In this document: positions 1 to 37,032 of the stretch, piece after piece | Numbering within the stretch: position 1 is the first letter of the stretch | Layout of the letters: every line of letters starts with the position of its first letter | From: a virus | Lineage: Duplodnaviria; Heunggongvirae; Uroviricota; Caudoviricetes | Length of the DNA: 37,032 nucleotides | Strand: one strand, 5' to 3' | Virus record (IMG/VR): IMGVR_UViG_2700989496_000004 | Notes under the pieces: model-generated | Told to the model about the DNA's origin: nothing | Database searches by the model: none | What the model saw: the letters and a program-made list of their open reading frames with translations, nothing else | Program-made: the position numbers and the translations under genes

Positions 1-150
1 CCGATAGAGCGTGGTATCGCGGGCCCCGGATTACTTGCCCGCGTGTTAACGGGAAAATACTGCGAACATCTGCCACTGTATCGTCAGAGTGAAATCTTTG
101 CCCGCCAGGGTGTCGAACTGAGCCGGGCCTTACTCTCCAACTGGGTTGAC
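1..150 (+). pseudogene. IS66-family transposase fragment, interrupted by the prophage end
   Basis: Frame 1 from position 1 translates without stops to PIERGIAGPGLLARVLTGKYCEHLPLYRQSEIFARQGVELSRALLSNWVD, containing the HLPLYRQ motif recalled for IS66 transposases. The frame ends at a TGA (151-153) that is also the start of the Mu-like end sequence. Confidence 0.6.
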
Positions 151-228
151 TGATGCGCCGCGCGATAAATGCACTCTATCTTGTGCGATAAATGGCATCC
201 ACGCGGCGTTTCATTATTTGAAAAAGAA
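151..228. repeat. Prophage terminus (gin-proximal end) with putative transposase-binding repeats
   Basis: Starts 5'-TGATGCGCCGCGCGATAAATG, resembling the Mu R-end TGAAGCGGCGCACGAAAAAC as recalled. GCGATAAATG occurs twice (162-171 and 185-194), 23 bp apart, just outside the gin stop. Confidence 0.5.
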
Positions 229-801
229 TTACATTTCAGGTTGCGTTATGACAGTCCCAACAGGGTGATAGCGGTAGATCGTTGACAGTCCAATATCATA
301 GATAATTGCCAGCCGCTTTCTGTCATACCCTTTCTGGAGCAATCTTGCGATCTGCTCATGCTGCTCCTTCGTCAGTTTCGGGCGACGTCCTCCAACTCTT
401 CCTTGTGCTCGCGCAGCAGCCAGTCCAGCCAGCGTGCGCTCAACTATCAGTTCACGCTCCATTTCTGCCAGTGCACCCATCATATGAAAAAAGAACCTTC
501 CCATCGGAGTGCTGGTATCGATTGAATCCGTCAGACTGCGAAAATTGACACCTTTTGCGCGTAGCTCTTCTGTGAGAGCAATGAGGTGTTTCATTCTTCT
601 ACCCAACCGATCCAGCTTCCAGACCACCAATGTATCCCCTCTTTTAAGGCACTTTAAAGCGCGTTTCAGGCCTGGTCGTTCCGACTTGGTTCCGCTCATT
701 TTGTCCTCAAAAATCTGTTCACATCCTGCGCACATTAATGCATTGCGTTGCAAATCTGTGTTTTGGTCATTTGTTGACACACGTATGTAGCCAATCAGCA
801 T
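229..801 (-). CDS. gin: Serine DNA invertase, Gin/Hin/Pin/Cin family
   Basis: Protein begins MLIGYIRVSTNDQNTDLQRNAL, close to Mu Gin as recalled, about 190 aa. AAGGGAG lies 8 nt upstream of the ATG at 799-801. The 233-aa track ORF carries an unlikely N-terminal extension. Confidence 0.93.
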   Translation of the reverse strand: MLIGYIRVSTNDQNTDLQRNALMCAGCEQIFEDKMSGTKSERPGLKRALKCLKRGDTLVVWKLDRLGRRMKHLIALTEELRAKGVNFRSLTDSIDTSTPMGRFFFHMMGALAEMERELIVERTLAGLAAARAQGRVGGRRPKLTKEQHEQIARLLQKGYDRKRLAIIYDIGLSTIYRYHPVGTVITQPEM

Positions 802-2394: not shown

Positions 2395-3731
2395 TAAACT
2401 GCCCTCACAATGTAATTAAGTGCAATGCTACGGGGTCTGACAGTGATACCCTTCGCATACCCGCTTCTGATAGAGGTCAGAATAGTAGCCTGCATACCAT
2501 TGTCTGACATTGCCACGACAGGATCGCTGAATGTTGTCCCGTCCGGCATTTTAAAGCTGCCCTCACGAAGGTCTGTAATGGAATCTTCATTGTTGAATCC
2601 CATGCCGACTATCCCCGAGGTTCCCGTAGTGTCCTGGTTATAATAATCCAGCATTGCTGTTCTTAACAGCGTTGCCCCTTGTGCGGACAGCAACTTACGT
2701 CCTGTATCAACTTTGCGCCCGTCGTCCCATCCACGGATAAACTCACCGCGTAAATCGGGAAGACGGAGGGTCGGGTAGACTCTGGCCAGAACAGGATATT
2801 GTTCTTTTGTAAAGGCGCGCCCGTCGCACTTTAACCAGCCTGCTGGCGGTGTGGCGGTGGGCCACGGAACAGGCACACCAACGGGTAGCGCCGAGCCTTC
2901 TCCTAAACCAAGGTAATTGAGGACATCTTTTATACTGCCCTTAGCGATAATAGCGCGACCAATAGCTGTAAGGGTTGCCAGCTCTGCGCGGTCTGCTCCG
3001 GTAAAATAAGGCAACCGATCTGCTGCAGTGGCAAGTCCTGCCAGAGCAGTGAGCGTGGCATCTGCCGGTTGTTTTCCGTTTGCCAGATCGTATGCAGCCT
3101 TGACCGCTTTCGGTGTGGCGGCCAGTATTTCAGACGTGCTGTTGATGGCACTGCTCAATTGTACGGTGCCTTTTGCCGTCAGCGAGGCAGCAGGCACTCC
3201 CGTTATCTGACTCCACGGGTGAGTGTGGCTGACGGGCGCCTTGCCGGCTGCAAGGTCGTATGCAGCCTTGACCGCCTTCGGCGTGGCAGCCTCAGTTTCT
3301 GATTGACTGTCCGTGGCGCTGCTCAGTTGTACGGTGCCTTTTGCCGTCAGTGAAGCCGCAGGCACTCCCGTTATCTGACTCCACGGGTGAGTGTGGCTGG
3401 CAGGCGCCTTGCCGGCTGCCAGGTCGTATGCAGCCTTGACCGCTTTTGGTGTGGCGGCCAGCGTTTCAGAGGTGCTGTTGGTGGCACTGCTCAGTTGGGT
3501 GAACCCCTTAGCTGTCAGTGTCGCGTCCGGGTGGTTACGGGAACGTACGTGTTCAGCCAGTGACTGTGCGGCTTCCTCCGTTTTCTTCTTCAGCCATTTC
3601 GTCCTGTTTGCCAGTTGCCGGGGGGCTCGATTTGATATCCCGTCTGCACCACCCAGAACCGGATCTGATGTCTCCAGTTGATAGATATTTTCTTCCCACT
3701 TTTCTGTTTCATTCAGGTTTCCCATAATCAA
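2394..3731 (-). CDS. Tail fibre protein (constant N-terminal part plus currently expressed variable tip)
   Basis: 445 aa with three ~55-aa tandem repeats (TAKG..QLSSA..S.SE..AATPKAVKAAYDLAAGK...HTHPWSQITGVPAASL) followed by the conserved crossover segment and a tip ending ...RPRSIALNYIVRAV. Start overlaps the stop of the upstream gene. Confidence 0.88.
   Translation of the reverse strand: MIMGNLNETEKWEENIYQLETSDPVLGGADGISNRAPRQLANRTKWLKKKTEEAAQSLAEHVRSRNHPDATLTAKGFTQLSSATNSTSETLAATPKAVKAAYDLAAGKAPASHTHPWSQITGVPAASLTAKGTVQLSSATDSQSETEAATPKAVKAAYDLAAGKAPVSHTHPWSQITGVPAASLTAKGTVQLSSAINSTSEILAATPKAVKAAYDLANGKQPADATLTALAGLATAADRLPYFTGADRAELATLTAIGRAIIAKGSIKDVLNYLGLGEGSALPVGVPVPWPTATPPAGWLKCDGRAFTKEQYPVLARVYPTLRLPDLRGEFIRGWDDGRKVDTGRKLLSAQGATLLRTAMLDYYNQDTTGTSGIVGMGFNNEDSITDLREGSFKMPDGTTFSDPVVAMSDNGMQATILTSIRSGYAKGITVRPRSIALNYIVRAV
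2893..2920. repeat. cix/gix-like crossover site 3 (inverted relative to sites 1 and 2, inside the expressed fibre gene)
   Basis: Minus strand reads ACCTTGGTTTAGGAGAAGGCTCGGCG..., i.e. TTCTCCTAAACC-AA-GGT on the complement. Homology to cassettes 1 and 2 begins here. Boundaries approximate. Confidence 0.55.
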
Positions 3732-8626: not shown

Positions 8627-11577
8627 CAGCGGTACTCCTTACGTTGTTTCTGAGCCAGCAGACGCTCCAGCATTTTTTCCAGCTCATGCAGACTCATATT
8701 CAGGGCACCAGTCAGTCCTGCAGGCGCTGTGGTTTCCCTGCCATTGAGGAAAAACTGAGGATTAAAGCTGACCTGGATACCACCAGACGTTCCACCGCCG
8801 GTTGCAGCTGCACCACGGCCTGAATATCCGGCAGCCAGGATTTCAGGCGAGGGGATACGGGGAACATCCGGTGTCATCTCATTTGCCAGACGTTGCCCTG
8901 GTAAAATCGATGCCCGGGTGGAGAGCGGAATAGCGGGCATGGAAGACAAACTATTGATTACGGCTCCGATCGCATTTTTAGCAGACGACATAAACCCATT
9001 GATATCGGGCAACGGCATACTGAAGCGAACACCTGAAGTGTTATCCCGTATTTCTGGCCCCTGAATGCTCACGGGCATTCTGGGGAGCAGTTCACTGGCC
9101 ATTCGCTGCCCGGCCAGAGCTGCAAGCGGAGTGGTCCGCTGCAGGCCAATGGCGGCCCCCTGCGCGATATTGTCACCAAAGCCCATAAACACGCGGCTCG
9201 GCGAATGAATGCCCAGCTTTTCGCTGAACCAGCCACTGATGCTGTCGCCCATTCCGGTTACACTGGATTTGAGCGACTCCCATTTGTTTTTGATACCGTT
9301 AATCAGACCATCGACAAGATGGCCACCGAAGTCGGTAAACTTTGCCGGCAGATCAACACCAAGATATTTCAGCGCAGCTGCAAAGGCTTTATAGAGCAGA
9401 CCTGCCGGCGACCAGTTAATCAGCAGCTTACCAGTTCCCGCGATACCGCCGTTAAAGGCTTCCTGAATGTCAGCCCAGCATTGTTTAAACCAGCTACTGA
9501 TGCTGTCACCCATTCCGGTTACACTGGATTTGAGCGACCCCCATTTGTTTTTGATACCGTTAATCAAACCGTCGATAAGATGGCCACCGAAGTCGGTGAA
9601 CTTTGCCGGCAGAGTAACGCCGAAATATTTCAGCGCAGCCGCAAAGGCTTTATAGAGCAGGCCTGCCGGCGACCAGTTAATCAGCAGCTTACCAGTTCCC
9701 GCGATACCGCCGTTAAAGGCTTCCTGAATGTCAGCCCAGCGCTGTTTAAACCAGCCACTGACTGCCCCCCAGTTGCGGTAGATAAGGTAAGCTGCTGCCG
9801 CGACAGCGGTGATAACGAGACCGATGGGATTCATCATCAGCGCTCGCCCAATCCAGAGAACGGCACGTGCAGCGCTCATAAAACCGCGAACGAGGCTGCC
9901 CGCCAGAACTTTGCTGAGTTTCAGTCCTCCGCTGGTCAGTCGGCTGAATCCAGTGACAAGCCAGCGTAATTTGCCACCTTCTCCGAGTGCGGTAGTCAGT
10001 CGATGCCAGTTGGTCCGGAGTAAAACAGCAGTTTTCCAGACGTTCACAAAGGGGGAAATAAGGAGATTCAGCCCCAGTTTGAGACCAACAGTCGCTATCT
10101 TAATCGCAAGGAGCGCACTGATGAGCTTAAAAGCCCCACTGACAAATTGCGGGTGAGTCGCCACCCAGTGTTTTGTCCCCTGAATGAGTGGGAGCAAGTC
10201 CTGAGTCAGAGAAATAAAAGATGGAGCTAATTGATCGCCCAGCGTAATTGCCAGATCGCGACTGCTGACCATAAGTGTTTTAGTGGCTTCAAGGGGAGAT
10301 TTCAGCCGCTGATCATAAGCACTGGCAAGCAAATCGTTATCCGCAGCCCTGAGAGCACCGGCACGGATCTCTCGATATCTGTCCATGTTGGCCAGCATCG
10401 GGCGGATAAATGCCATGACCTGCATATCCGCGAACATATCGCCCAGACCAAAGTTTTTCGCCAGAGCCTGAAGTGCCTCATCTCTTGCCGTATCATTCTT
10501 TATTTTCATGGCTGATTTGAAGCCGGCCAGCGCTTCGGGGCTTTTGGCATTGAGGTAACGTTCTATAACACTCAACATCCCTTCAATCGGAGAGATCCCC
10601 GCAGCTTTATAACTCGCAATAGATCCCTGCAAATCAATACCCAGATCAGCAAACTGTTTCTGAGTATCGCGGGCAAAAATTTTGGTAAGAAAGTTTTTAA
10701 AATTATTGGCTGCTTCGTCGGTGGAACCTGCACCGATTTTTGCTATCTGGAGACTGGCCCCGATTTCAGCAACAGCCTCTTTTCCACTGGCAATACCCGC
10801 CATCATTGGGGCCAGGGACTGCATCCACTTGACCTGATCCGGGATTTCAAATGACCCCTGGTCACCGGCATAAGCCATAATATTCTGAACGGCACCAAAA
10901 TCTCTGGCCGCGCCTTTCAGGGAGTTTTGCCAGACTGCGGCCACTTTTGCCCAGTCCTGAGCAGACGTGCGTGTTGCCGTTGCCGCGCGGGCAATATCCG
11001 GCATCAGAAAACCGATATCTGACACATTATCAATATTGTCGCTGATGAGTGAACCCATCGCCTCCTGCAGCTCATCCTGATACTGATTGTATTTAAGCGC
11101 CCAGCCTTTTATCTGTCCGGCAAGTGCATCCCGCGTTTTATTGTCATATTTTGCGGTGATCGACATATCAATCATTTTGTCCTGAAAAGACATGGACTGC
11201 TGAACGGCAGGGGAAACCGTATGATAAACAGTCTGTGCCATGCCATACGCTTCAATCCCCTGACCATACAGCGCCATGCGGTTAGCTTTCAGCGCATCAC
11301 TGGTAGCGGATGCCGCTGACAGACGGCGCTGCTGGCGCTCAATTTGCTCCATGGTGCGGCTTACCCGCAGCAGCTCGCTGTTGAGATGCTGCATCCGGGA
11401 AGAACCCAGTTGACCATAACGTTCTGTTGCACGGGTTAAAGCGTTCTGACGTTCCTGCAGGCGGCGTGAGGTATCGCTCAGGGAATCAAGCGCACGGCGG
11501 GTACCGCTCATTGCAGAACGGAATGTGCTGCCAATCATCCCGCCGATAACAACGCCGACTGAAAACTGTCCCGACAT
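8626..11577 (-). CDS. Tail tape measure protein
   Basis: 983 aa, hydrophobic/Gly-rich segments, internal 86-aa tandem duplication, located after the chaperone pair and before baseplate genes. Confidence 0.9.
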   Translation of the reverse strand: MSGQFSVGVVIGGMIGSTFRSAMSGTRRALDSLSDTSRRLQERQNALTRATERYGQLGSSRMQHLNSELLRVSRTMEQIERQQRRLSAASATSDALKANRMALYGQGIEAYGMAQTVYHTVSPAVQQSMSFQDKMIDMSITAKYDNKTRDALAGQIKGWALKYNQYQDELQEAMGSLISDNIDNVSDIGFLMPDIARAATATRTSAQDWAKVAAVWQNSLKGAARDFGAVQNIMAYAGDQGSFEIPDQVKWMQSLAPMMAGIASGKEAVAEIGASLQIAKIGAGSTDEAANNFKNFLTKIFARDTQKQFADLGIDLQGSIASYKAAGISPIEGMLSVIERYLNAKSPEALAGFKSAMKIKNDTARDEALQALAKNFGLGDMFADMQVMAFIRPMLANMDRYREIRAGALRAADNDLLASAYDQRLKSPLEATKTLMVSSRDLAITLGDQLAPSFISLTQDLLPLIQGTKHWVATHPQFVSGAFKLISALLAIKIATVGLKLGLNLLISPFVNVWKTAVLLRTNWHRLTTALGEGGKLRWLVTGFSRLTSGGLKLSKVLAGSLVRGFMSAARAVLWIGRALMMNPIGLVITAVAAAAYLIYRNWGAVSGWFKQRWADIQEAFNGGIAGTGKLLINWSPAGLLYKAFAAALKYFGVTLPAKFTDFGGHLIDGLINGIKNKWGSLKSSVTGMGDSISSWFKQCWADIQEAFNGGIAGTGKLLINWSPAGLLYKAFAAALKYLGVDLPAKFTDFGGHLVDGLINGIKNKWESLKSSVTGMGDSISGWFSEKLGIHSPSRVFMGFGDNIAQGAAIGLQRTTPLAALAGQRMASELLPRMPVSIQGPEIRDNTSGVRFSMPLPDINGFMSSAKNAIGAVINSLSSMPAIPLSTRASILPGQRLANEMTPDVPRIPSPEILAAGYSGRGAAATGGGTSGGIQVSFNPQFFLNGRETTAPAGLTGALNMSLHELEKMLERLLAQKQRKEYR
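9229..9744. repeat. 258-bp tandem duplication (2 copies plus the start of a third) inside the tape measure gene
   Basis: aaccagcc/tactgatgctgtc...cccattccggttacactggatttgagcga recurs with a 258-bp period. The encoded 86-aa units differ at about 6 residues. Confidence 0.85.
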
Positions 11578-30243: not shown

Positions 30244-32013
30244 ATGACCCCGGCACTGACTGAAAAACTGGTTGAAACAGCCCGCGCGGCACGTGACGCG
30301 GGGCATGGTAAACGCGGTGCAATATACGACGCTGCCTGTGCTGAACTTGGCATGTCCCGCGCCACTCTGCTGCGCAGGCTGAAGGAGGTATCTGTGACTG
30401 ATAAACGCAAAAAACGCGCCGATGCCGGGCGCAGCGCCCTGACCCGCGACGAAGCCGCGCTGATATCTGCCACACTGCGTGAGGCCACCCGCAAGAACGG
30501 TAAGCGTCTCTATTCCATCGCAGATGCAGTGGAAACCCTGCGGGCTAACGGCTTTATCACCGCAGGCAGAACAGATGAAACCACCAGTGAGTTTTTCCCG
30601 TTGTCTGAAGATGCCATCAGCCGTGCTCTGCGTAACTATGGCCTGCACCCGGAACAACTGGATGCCCCTGCACCACATACCGAAGTGGCCAGTCTGCATC
30701 CCAATCATGTCTGGCAGATTGACGCCTCACTCTGCACGCTTTACTACCTGAGCAATGGACATAAAGGGCTGCAGGTGATGGACAGCGCGAAGTTCTACAA
30801 GAACAAGCCCGCTAACCTTGCCCGTATCGCCAGTGACCGCGTGTGGAGTTACGAGATTACCGACCATGCCAGCGGCTGGATTTACGTTGAGTATGTGACG
30901 GGCGCGGAATCAGGTGAGAACCTGTGTTCTGTGCTTATCAACGCCATGCAGGAGCGTGGCGGCGCAGACGTGCTGCACGGCGTGCCGAAAATACTCTATC
31001 TCGACCCCGGCTCGGCAAACACCGCGGGTATGACGAAAAACATGTGCCGCTCACTGGGCATCGACCTGATAGCGCACAAGCCGCATAACGCCCGCGCCAC
31101 CGGACAGGTGGAAAAGGCGCGTGACATTATCGAACGCAAGCTGGAGCCGGGTCTGAAGTTCCGGCCGGTTCACAGTCTGGAAGAACTCAACGCGCTGGCC
31201 GCGAAATGGCGCAGCCACTTTAACGCCACGGCTGTTCACAGCCGCCACGGTAAAACCCGCACGGATATCTGGCTGAAGATTACTGCTGAGCAGCTGAAAA
31301 AAGCGCCTTCCGTTGAGGTATGTCGTGAACTGGCTGTGGCGGCACCAGAACTCCGCAAAGTCACGCCAAAACTTCGTGTCTCGTTCCGGGGCACTGAATT
31401 TGACGTATCAACGGTACCGGGCGTACTGGTTGGTGAAAAACTGATGATTACCCGTAACCCATGGCGCAGCGATGTGGCACAGGTGGTTCTGACCGGTGAG
31501 GACGGCCACGAGACGTTCTTCCTGGTCGAAGAGGTCAGAAAGAACGAGTTTGGCTTTGCTGAAGGCGCGGCGGTATTTGGCGAAAGTTACAAAGCCCTGC
31601 CGGAAACCCCGGCACAGATGGCGGCAAAAGAAACCGAAGCGCTGGTTACCGGTACAGACAACGCCGCAGATGCAGCCGCCGCACGCAAGGCGAAGGCGCT
31701 GCCGTTCGGCGGGCGGCTTGACCCGTATAAACATATCGACGACACCACACTTCCGGCCTATATGCCGAAGCGTGGTCAGGCCTCTGACGTACGCGGGCCG
31801 CGCACTGAACAACGTCCCATGACTCATGTGGAGGCCGCGAAAGCCCTGCGCGATAAGTTCAGCGCCGACGGCCTTACCTGGACGCCGGAACATTACCGCC
31901 AGTTAACGGCACAGTACCCGGACGGCGTACCGGAAGCCGCACTGGATGAAGTCATGGCCACGCTGACCACACCGGCCCGCAGCAGTGTTATCAGCATTGT
32001 TAACGGCAACTGA
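30244..32013 (+). CDS. DDE transposase (Mu A-like)
   Basis: 589 aa with candidate DDE residues in WQIDAS, LYLDPGS and GQVEKARD, directly upstream of the MuB-like ATPase. Confidence 0.8.
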   Translation: MTPALTEKLVETARAARDAGHGKRGAIYDAACAELGMSRATLLRRLKEVSVTDKRKKRADAGRSALTRDEAALISATLREATRKNGKRLYSIADAVETLRANGFITAGRTDETTSEFFPLSEDAISRALRNYGLHPEQLDAPAPHTEVASLHPNHVWQIDASLCTLYYLSNGHKGLQVMDSAKFYKNKPANLARIASDRVWSYEITDHASGWIYVEYVTGAESGENLCSVLINAMQERGGADVLHGVPKILYLDPGSANTAGMTKNMCRSLGIDLIAHKPHNARATGQVEKARDIIERKLEPGLKFRPVHSLEELNALAAKWRSHFNATAVHSRHGKTRTDIWLKITAEQLKKAPSVEVCRELAVAAPELRKVTPKLRVSFRGTEFDVSTVPGVLVGEKLMITRNPWRSDVAQVVLTGEDGHETFFLVEEVRKNEFGFAEGAAVFGESYKALPETPAQMAAKETEALVTGTDNAADAAAARKAKALPFGGRLDPYKHIDDTTLPAYMPKRGQASDVRGPRTEQRPMTHVEAAKALRDKFSADGLTWTPEHYRQLTAQYPDGVPEAALDEVMATLTTPARSSVISIVNGN

Positions 32014-32023
32014 GGAGGGAAAC

Positions 32024-33190
32024 ATGCTGGTACTGAAGCAGCAACTGAAAGAGGCCCGTATTCCACAGGCGGTGGTGGCGAGAGCTGTCGATGTTTCTGA
32101 GGCCACGCTGGCCCAGATTGTGAATCATAACGCGTGGCCCCGCACCAGCCCCGGAGAAGTGCGCCGGCGTCTTGCGTCCTGGCTGGAAAGTCAGGGGATT
32201 GATACAACGAAGAGTTTTGATGCTGTACAGGGCGCGGCCACGCCCCGTACAGCGGGTACCACAGATAAAACGAGCCTCAGTGAGGAAGAGAATATGTTAC
32301 TCAAAAAACAGGTGTTATTTCCAGCAACCAAAAAAGCGTTTGGTCTTTTCCGTGACCCGTTCGCCGACGAAGCCATGCAGGGTTCTGATGATGTGTTCAC
32401 CACCCCGGACATTCGCTACGTGCGTGAGGCGCTGTACCAGACAGCCCGTCATGGTGGGTTTATGGCCGTCATCGGTGAGTCCGGTGCGGGTAAATCCACG
32501 CTGCGCCGCGACCTGACTGAACGTATCAACCGCGAGAATGCGCCGGTAATTGTTATCGAGCCATACATCATCGCTATGGAAGACAACGATGTGAAAGGGA
32601 AAACCCTGAAGGCAGCAGCTATTGCCGAAGCCATTATCAGTACCATCGCACCACTGGAAAGCATCAGACGCAGTCAGGACGCCCGTTTTCGCCAGTTGCA
32701 TCGCGTCCTGAAAGACAGCAGCCAGGCGGGGTTCAGCCACGTTCTGGTGATTGAGGAGGCCCACAGTCTGCCCATTCCGACACTGAAACACCTCAAACGC
32801 TTTTTTGAGCTGGAGTCCGGTTTCAAAAAACTGCTGTCCATCGTGCTGATTGGCCAGCCGGAACTGGCGACAAAACTGTCTGAACGCAATATGGAAGTCC
32901 GTGAAGTCGTTCAGCGCTGTGAGGTGGTCGAACTTCTGCCTCTGGACAATAACCTTGAAGAATTTCTGACGTTCAAACTGCAACGGGCCGGTAAACAGCT
33001 GACGGACATTATGGACGCCGGTGCAGTGGATGCCATACGTGCCCGCCTGAGCAATCCGGGAAGTCACCGTAAAAATATGGTCAGCCTGCTGTATCCGCTG
33101 GCCGTCAGTAACCTGGTAATAGCCGCCATGAATCTGGCCGCTGAAATCGGGGTTCCACAGGTCAACGCTGACGTTGTCAAAGGGGTTTAA
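32024..33190 (+). CDS. Transposition ATPase (Mu B-like AAA+)
   Basis: Walker A GESGAGKST and Walker B VLVIEEAH. Start at ATG 32024 after GGAGG; the track ORF includes a 13-aa upstream extension. Confidence 0.8.
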   Translation: MLVLKQQLKEARIPQAVVARAVDVSEATLAQIVNHNAWPRTSPGEVRRRLASWLESQGIDTTKSFDAVQGAATPRTAGTTDKTSLSEEENMLLKKQVLFPATKKAFGLFRDPFADEAMQGSDDVFTTPDIRYVREALYQTARHGGFMAVIGESGAGKSTLRRDLTERINRENAPVIVIEPYIIAMEDNDVKGKTLKAAAIAEAIISTIAPLESIRRSQDARFRQLHRVLKDSSQAGFSHVLVIEEAHSLPIPTLKHLKRFFELESGFKKLLSIVLIGQPELATKLSERNMEVREVVQRCEVVELLPLDNNLEEFLTFKLQRAGKQLTDIMDAGAVDAIRARLSNPGSHRKNMVSLLYPLAVSNLVIAAMNLAAEIGVPQVNADVVKGV

Positions 33191-36221: not shown

Positions 36222-36671
36222 ATGCAGAAAAAACGCCTGATACAGCTTATCCATATTGCCCGTAATGAACTGGGTATGGATGAAGACACCTACCGCCAGA
36301 TGTTACAGGGGCTGACCGGTAAAGCCTCAACCAAAGGAATGGATACCACACAACTAAACTGCGTGCTGGAATCCATGAAAAAGAAAGGCTTTCGCGTTAA
36401 ACCAGCCAGAAAAGCCAGCTCCGGTTTACCGCTTGATAACCATCCGCAGTCCAGGAAAATTCGTGCGCTATGGCTTGAAATGGCTGCTGCCGGCATTGTT
36501 CGTGACCGTTCAGAAAATGCATTAGCGAGGTGGATCAAGCGGGAAACGGGCATCAGCGCCCTGCGCTGGCTCAGTACTGAACAGGCAAGCAGTGTTATTG
36601 AGAAACTGAAGAAGTGGCAGCGCAGAGCTGCGGGAGTCAAACATGAGCGACCTGAATCAGTTTCGAAGTAA
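36222..36671 (+). CDS. GemA-like protein (Mu gp16, DUF1018-type)
   Basis: 149 aa, N-terminus MQKKRLIQLIHIARNELGMDEDTYRQMLQGLTGK resembles the gp16/GemA family as recalled. AGGAGA ribosome-binding site. Confidence 0.6.
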   Translation: MQKKRLIQLIHIARNELGMDEDTYRQMLQGLTGKASTKGMDTTQLNCVLESMKKKGFRVKPARKASSGLPLDNHPQSRKIRALWLEMAAAGIVRDRSENALARWIKRETGISALRWLSTEQASSVIEKLKKWQRRAAGVKHERPESVSK

Positions 36672-37032
36672 GGGGCCGGAACTCCTGGTGGAACTGGCAC
36701 AGCATACCTCTGAGACCGTTCGCGAGATTATTGATATTGAGCCCGAAGTTGCCGACCAGATTGGTCAGGCCGTCGCGAACCGAATGATGCAGGTCTGGGG
36801 CGGGCAAAACGTTTATTTCCCGATGGGCATGGTATGGAAGGTCAGTCAGCGCGACCGGGAAATCTTCAGGGAGTTTAACGGACGCAACCACCACGAACTG
36901 GCCCGCAAATTTGGTGTTTCGCTTCAGTGGGTCTACAGCGTGGTTAAGCGGGTAAGAAAAGAAGAACTGGATCGGATGCAGGGCAAGCTATTTGCTGATG
37001 AACCCGATGCAGATACGGAGAAAAAAGAGTAA
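36643..37032 (+). CDS. Mor/C-family transcriptional activator (middle/late operon regulator)
   Basis: 129 aa; C-terminal FNGRNHHELARKFGVSLQWVYSVVKRVRK resembles Mu Mor/C HTH as recalled. Window ends at its stop codon. Confidence 0.65.
   Translation: MSDLNQFRSKGPELLVELAQHTSETVREIIDIEPEVADQIGQAVANRMMQVWGGQNVYFPMGMVWKVSQRDREIFREFNGRNHHELARKFGVSLQWVYSVVKRVRKEELDRMQGKLFADEPDADTEKKE

Follow-up and report, generated by a model that had tools for sequence, protein, structure and literature searches.

The window analysed here, a stretch of 37,032 nt of viral DNA, opens with 150 bp of an IS66-family transposase gene that ends abruptly against a phage, and this raises the question of what kind of phage it is and how the two elements came to be joined. 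Our reading, to which we give a probability of about 85%, is that a Bcepmuvirus phage of 37,045 bp inserted by transposition in a copy of ISEc23, where it interrupts tnpC after codon 242. This is a real but ordinary case of mobile-element nesting, the value of which lies mainly in annotation. The junction places one prophage boundary with single-base precision and corrects the expected target duplication to 6 bp, the element is identified as a known and widespread E. coli Bcepmuvirus prophage, not Mu, for which the insertion site alone is new, and the nesting of a phage in an IS both inactivates that IS copy and indicates insertion regardless of target.

The IS side of the junction is straightforward. 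Positions 1-150 (plus strand) are open in frame 1, yield exactly the peptide quoted in the first-pass annotation and are followed by a TGA at 151-153, which closes the truncated tnpC frame. The assignment of this peptide to an IS66 transposase was correct. Its 50 residues match the Pfam family PF03050 (DDE_Tnp_IS66, E=5.3e-15, 56 bits for a cutoff of 23.1) and the NCBIfam IS66 transposase model NF033517 (E=1.1e-15, which is under the full-length cutoff solely because 50 aa are present), while the DNA is 100% identical (150/150 nt) to ISEc23 tnpC, a gene that thousands of E. coli records list under the name "IS66-like element ISEc23 family transposase". Measured on an intact reference copy (L003) with the organization tnpA-tnpB-tnpC, window base 1 is tnpC nt 577 and base 150 is nt 726, which corresponds to residues 193-242 of the 537-aa TnpC and includes the start of the DDE_Tnp_IS66 domain with its HLPLYRQ motif; the upstream tnpA and tnpB genes and the IS ends fall outside the window. 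The two sequences are thus the same over nt 577-726, but here the gene is cut after codon 242: downstream of ...GGGTTGAC the intact IS reads GCGTGCTGCC, whereas the window reads TGATGCGCCG. Homology to ISEc23 ends exactly at 150/151 and nothing more of the IS is found in the rest of the window. An alignment of TnpC by tblastn that reached window position 273 was rejected because it crosses two stop codons and the portion past residue 242 has, by itself, a best E of 9.6, so the IS66 homology does not continue past position 151. The truncated TnpC retains the leucine zipper and the zinc finger of its N-terminal portion, but of the DDE domain just the first ~46 of 284 profile positions, and since nearly all of that domain is lost, the interrupted ISEc23 copy is inactivated.

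The phage side of the junction is equally sharp, and comparison with other copies identifies position 151 as the true prophage terminus. Positions 151-228 (plus strand) form a terminal non-coding segment on the tail-fibre/invertase side, which starts with 5'-TGA and extends up to the stop codon of the minus-strand invertase gene. The same terminus, TGATGCGCC, with the same first base, adjoins aroA, ppiC, an amidohydrolase gene and ompF elsewhere, hence at least four unrelated E. coli chromosomal sites, and it is also present as an isolated end in a P1-like plasmid. A terminus at 146-148, where some BLAST matches start, was rejected because these alignments are chance extensions into the flanks (GAA, TGA), and ranking BLAST matches by coverage favours precisely those with such extensions. 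The precise junction proposed from the sequence is therefore at 150/151, where identity to ISEc23 stops and the phage terminus starts. Furthermore, the direction of the event can be read from this arrangement. The IS is broken inside tnpC while the phage is present at its canonical TG terminus, and this terminus lies against four other unrelated flanks and forms the end found in the P1-like plasmid, which argues that the phage entered the IS and not the reverse. The idea that a transposable phage had landed in another mobile element is thereby borne out.

Within the terminal segment, the two repeats reported to lie 23 bp apart are exact copies of GCGATAAATG at 162-171 and 185-194 (both plus strand, positions 12-21 and 35-44 from the terminus), with 23 bp from start to start and 13 bp between copies. 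These are the only two exact occurrences of GCGATAAATG in the 37-kb window, for a chance expectation of ~0.07. Position, conservation and analogy with Mu R1/R2 suggest that they are probably transposase-binding sites. Read inward, the fibre-side end of the prophage is TGATGCGCCGC-GCGATAAATG-N13-GCGATAAATG and the Mor-side end is TGATTAGACTT-GAGATAAATG-N13-GAGATATTTA, while the right end of BcepMu is TGAAGCGCGGC-GCGATATTTC-N13-GCGATAAATT and its left end is TGAAGAGAGGT-GAGATATTTC-N13-GCGATATTTC. An architecture TGA-N8-G[A/C]GATAWWT-N14-G[A/C]GATAWWT is common to both prophage ends and both BcepMu ends, with the 23-bp period kept in all four, and TG...CA termini are characteristic of BcepMu-related elements (PMC2628397). 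A scan of positions 1-1000 for promoters and terminators found none.

The window displays the tail-fibre/invertase-side junction, and because the other prophage end lies outside it, the target duplication and the remaining part of tnpC are out of view. Sister copies of the prophage supply what can be expected there. In the reference copy (L001), the opposite end, ...CATTTATCTCAAGTCTAATCA, is found 163 bp past the stop codon of the Mor gene; across loci the distance is 162-163 bp, a range due to a T-run whose length differs by one base. The complete prophage is therefore 37,045 bp long with TG...CA ends, its second end being 163 bp beyond window position 37032. This Mor-side end was located in 11 loci that represent 10 distinct genomic contexts, which points to near-random transposition, and the insertion sites (10 Mor-side flanks, ompF, the amidohydrolase gene and, in the window, ISEc23) are unrelated. 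Direct repeats of 6 bp flank all four complete sister copies—GAAGAA (aroA/ycaL), CTTGAA (ppiC/rep), CAAGAC (ompF) and TCTGAC (amidohydrolase)—and neither 5-bp nor 7-bp repeats fit; two of these four copies interrupt annotated genes, ompF and the amidohydrolase gene. The 5-bp duplication expected in the first-pass annotation must consequently be replaced by one of 6 bp, which agrees with the published distinction between B3/Tn552-family transposases, which generate 6-bp duplications, and Mu, which generates 5 bp (PMC8705779). TG...CA ends are likewise a property of B3/Tn552-family elements (PMC8705779, PMC2628397). On the basis of the four sister copies and PMC8705779, the predicted target sequence in the window is GTTGAC at 145-150, with its second copy outside the window. 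From this we infer that the other junction would read ...TCTAATCA-GTTGAC-GCGTGCTGCC, the last element being the remainder of tnpC, and for a simple insertion the expected order across the Mor-side junction is ...CATTTATCTCAAGTCTAATCA, GTTGAC and GCGTGCTGCCAGTTAATGACACC. Put in gene coordinates, the Mor-side end ...CAAGTCTAATCA should be followed by GTTGAC and then by tnpC from nt 727 onward.

The description of position 151 as a "Mu-type end" holds in one respect, as this is a TG terminus of a transposable phage, but fails as an assignment to the Mu family, because the transposase is a Tn552-related rve enzyme of the B3/BcepMu group and not MuA. Gene content and sequence similarity identify the prophage as a BcepMu/B3-like transposable phage of the genus Bcepmuvirus, "Mu-type" by analogy only. 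The predicted DDE transposase (589 aa, 30244-32013, plus strand) has rve (PF00665) as its sole Pfam match. Over 98-100% of its length in tblastn, it shares 68% identity with BcepMu gp09, which bears the annotation "Tn552/IS1604 rve transposase," and 56% with B3 transposase A, and it is 100% identical to the transposase of Escherichia phage PhiKM, a near-identical phage that is placed under Bcepmuvirus at NCBI. In the phage collection its tblastn matches all fall under Pseudomonas, Burkholderia, Stenotrophomonas, Klebsiella, Ralstonia, cyanobacterial and two Escherichia names, and the matches listed are of BcepMu/B3 type (PhiKM, Phi06_2974 B). The adjacent gene (32024-33190, plus strand) encodes a predicted ExeA-like AAA+ transposition ATPase (Pfam AAA_22, E=3.6e-20), which occupies the position of BcepMu gp08 and is the counterpart of MuB. 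A Gam homologue is encoded downstream of these two genes (Pfam), and the genes for GemA and Mor (36222-37032, plus strand; Pfam E=8e-41 and E=1e-43, respectively) are the last before the other prophage end. The early genes are on the plus strand (~28.4-37.0 kb) and the late genes on the minus strand (~1.8-25.5 kb), the two groups diverging from about 25.5-28.4 kb. The early operon therefore runs opposite to the late genes, with GemA-Mor closing it next to one terminus, in a gene order that mirrors BcepMu; an inverted early operon is a feature of the B3-like layout (PMC5977238). In addition to the related transposase with its adjacent ATPase, the inverted early operon and the late/tail gene order, BcepMu shares the TG...CA termini and the two subterminal G[A/C]GATAWWT sites in identical register, and the 6-bp duplication, as deduced here from sister copies, is a likeness to the B3/Tn552 family. 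The differences from BcepMu are the host, which is here E. coli, and the fibre-side end, where BcepMu has an acyltransferase gene whereas this prophage has a Gin/Cin-type invertase and an invertible tail-fibre segment.

Three other explanations of the junction deserve to be weighed, the first of which concerns the phage itself. If this were a true Mu-family phage, it would have a MuA transposase and a 5-bp duplication. The resemblance to Mu is genuine as far as it goes: a TG terminus followed by tandem subterminal repeats is reminiscent of Mu R1/R2, and the two phages have in common transposition, TG...CA ends, tandem transposase-binding sites (predicted here), homologues of Gam, GemA and Mor, and a serine invertase next to a fibre segment that can be inverted. 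Nevertheless, the transposase matches rve only and Pfam finds no Mu-transposase (MuA) domains in it, Mu is absent among the tblastn matches listed, the early region has the opposite orientation to the late genes, and all four complete copies show a duplication of 6 bp, not 5 bp. Taken together, transposase domains, relatives, operon orientation and duplication length refute a Mu-family identity and leave it a negligible probability. In the second explanation the junction exists but did not arise by simple insertion. Intramolecular replicative transposition, with deletion or inversion of adjacent DNA, would have produced it, or else two prophage copies would have recombined, and the other prophage end would then adjoin something other than the remaining ISEc23. 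Transposable phages do produce such rearrangements, as established for Mu, and the flank in the window is only 150 bp long; moreover, some complete E. coli genomes have two to three Mor-side matches, and the 100% identity of the prophage to the ST131 aroA-ycaL copy would fit a recent intragenomic event. We consider this improbable all the same, as the four complete copies are without exception simple insertions with matching 6-bp repeats and the window itself shows no sign of rearrangement.

The third explanation is that the junction is an artefact: a multi-copy IS and a multi-copy phage end could have been fused into a chimera during assembly, or host DNA attached to packaged phage genomes could have been assembled as though it belonged to the chromosome. 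Both partners are repeated in many E. coli genomes, just 150 bp of the IS are present, and the junction occurs in no other record in the collections searched. A megablast search with positions 1-1000 in 5,426 complete E. coli genomes did not find it (coverage at most 86%), nor was the IS-phage junction found in PLSDB or INPHARED, and exact and degenerate junction patterns had no match in IMG/VR, GTDB representative genomes or JGI metagenomes. The second junction, between the Mor side and tnpC, was likewise not found in those genome, plasmid, phage and metagenome collections. An exact-protein look-up of the 50-aa TnpC fragment returned no record, and there are no junction-spanning ORFs with a start codon upstream of the junction other than tnpC. 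An artefact is nonetheless very unlikely, considering that the break falls exactly at the terminal base of the phage, with the frame and sequence of the IS undisturbed before it, which is the product of transposition but is rare for random chimeras, and that the joined sequences share no microhomology (TTGAC|TGATG compared with the IS continuation GCGTG). Two sets of candidate junction records were discarded during these searches. The 242-aa N-terminal fragment of TnpC is encoded, with the product cut at nt 726-728, in 22 contigs from unrelated assemblies (NCBI, ENA and Logan; L017-L026). In all 10 of these 22 that were read, the contig ends within the gene, and any trailing bases (G or GC) are those of the intact IS, so they were rejected as phage junctions, and their cut at the phage insertion point is most likely a selection effect of querying the 242-aa product. 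A 290-aa C-terminal ORF that was also looked up was set aside because it occurs only in frameshifted copies of ISEc23.

Simple insertion of a Bcepmuvirus phage into ISEc23 is thus the reading we retain, and a plausible course of events can be outlined. The rve transposase and its AAA+ partner would bind the two G[A/C]GATAWWT sites that lie near each end, at positions 12 and 35 from the terminus, after which the transposase would cut at the terminal TG/CA and join the phage ends to target strands staggered by 6 bp. The terminal TGA of the phage serves as the stop codon of the truncated TnpC, with inactivation of this ISEc23 copy as the outcome.

The prophage is not confined to this window. Its body in the window (151-37032, 36,882 of 37,045 bp) is identical to the prophage of the ST131 strain 4/1-1 (L001), and in a 36,885-bp alignment of the two the lone mismatch is flank base 150. 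In ST131 this prophage lies between aroA and ycaL, in strains such as 4/1-1 and EC958, and it is also represented by the INPHARED entry "Entero_P88..." (PV468777.1) and by phage PhiKM. The difference is that the fibre-side end adjoins ISEc23 tnpC here, but the aroA side of the intergenic region there. The Mor-side region of the prophage is matched in ~640 of the 5,426 complete E. coli genomes. According to a preprint on ST131 bone isolates, Bcepmuvirus is among the prophage genera and reversible inversions occur in "Entero_P88" (10.1101/2022.05.07.487787), a name also borne by PV468777.1, which matches this prophage. Since no base of the prophage differs from the ST131 aroA-ycaL copy, the window might record that the ST131 prophage transposed only very recently into a copy of ISEc23, a more specific scenario that we put forward tentatively and think doubtful. 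On sequence grounds, the 100% identity and the two to three places in some complete genomes that match the Mor-side region would fit a phage that is still transposing. If this scenario is true, the Bcepmuvirus prophage of ST131 retains the ability to transpose, and such an event could bring an entire phage into an IS or onto a conjugative plasmid; ISEc23 also occurs on F-type plasmids and is beside traC in one contig. Should the source strain retain the aroA-ycaL copy as well, the window would be evidence that the ST131 prophage still transposes.

A separate observation concerns P1-like phage-plasmids. About 17-19 such plasmids in PLSDB (87-96 kb) contain the terminal 78 bp of the prophage with both GCGATAAATG sites, together with the identical invertase and the invertible fibre segment, at 97-100% identity. 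The match covers window positions 151 to ~3500, copies being found at L002 (4004-5370) and L029 (NZ_CP032875.1), and homology begins exactly at the phage terminal TG, adjoining the P1 holin gene. Two plasmids match only the first 111 bp of the prophage terminus. Because BcepMu has the same end architecture, this terminus is native to the transposable phage. It thus seems that a single phage end has persisted in the P1-like lineage, perhaps because a phage inserted near cin and the invertase/fibre modules then recombined.

Finally, the fibre-side region and the tape-measure gene show several forms of internal variation. The invertase gene (229-801, minus strand) encodes a 190-aa serine invertase of the Gin/Cin type (Pfam Resolvase, E=8e-51, and HTH_7), listed as WP_000904922.1 (recombinase family protein) in the identical copy L001. 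It is followed by an invertible tail-fibre segment at 865-2914, bounded by 229-bp inverted arms (865-1093 and 2686-2914) that are 94% complementary. A third arm at 1304-1532 makes more than one inversion possible, and positions 868-2914 are in the opposite orientation in strain JMK_KBN3987, which indicates that the fibre switch is active. The tail-fibre gene contains three tandem 168-bp units (window 3073-3576), and the tape-measure gene contains an internal duplication of ~260 bp (window 9227-9779). The length of the tape-measure CDS varies among near-identical prophages, being 2,952 nt here, 2,691 nt in one copy (L014) and 3,213 nt in another (L015).
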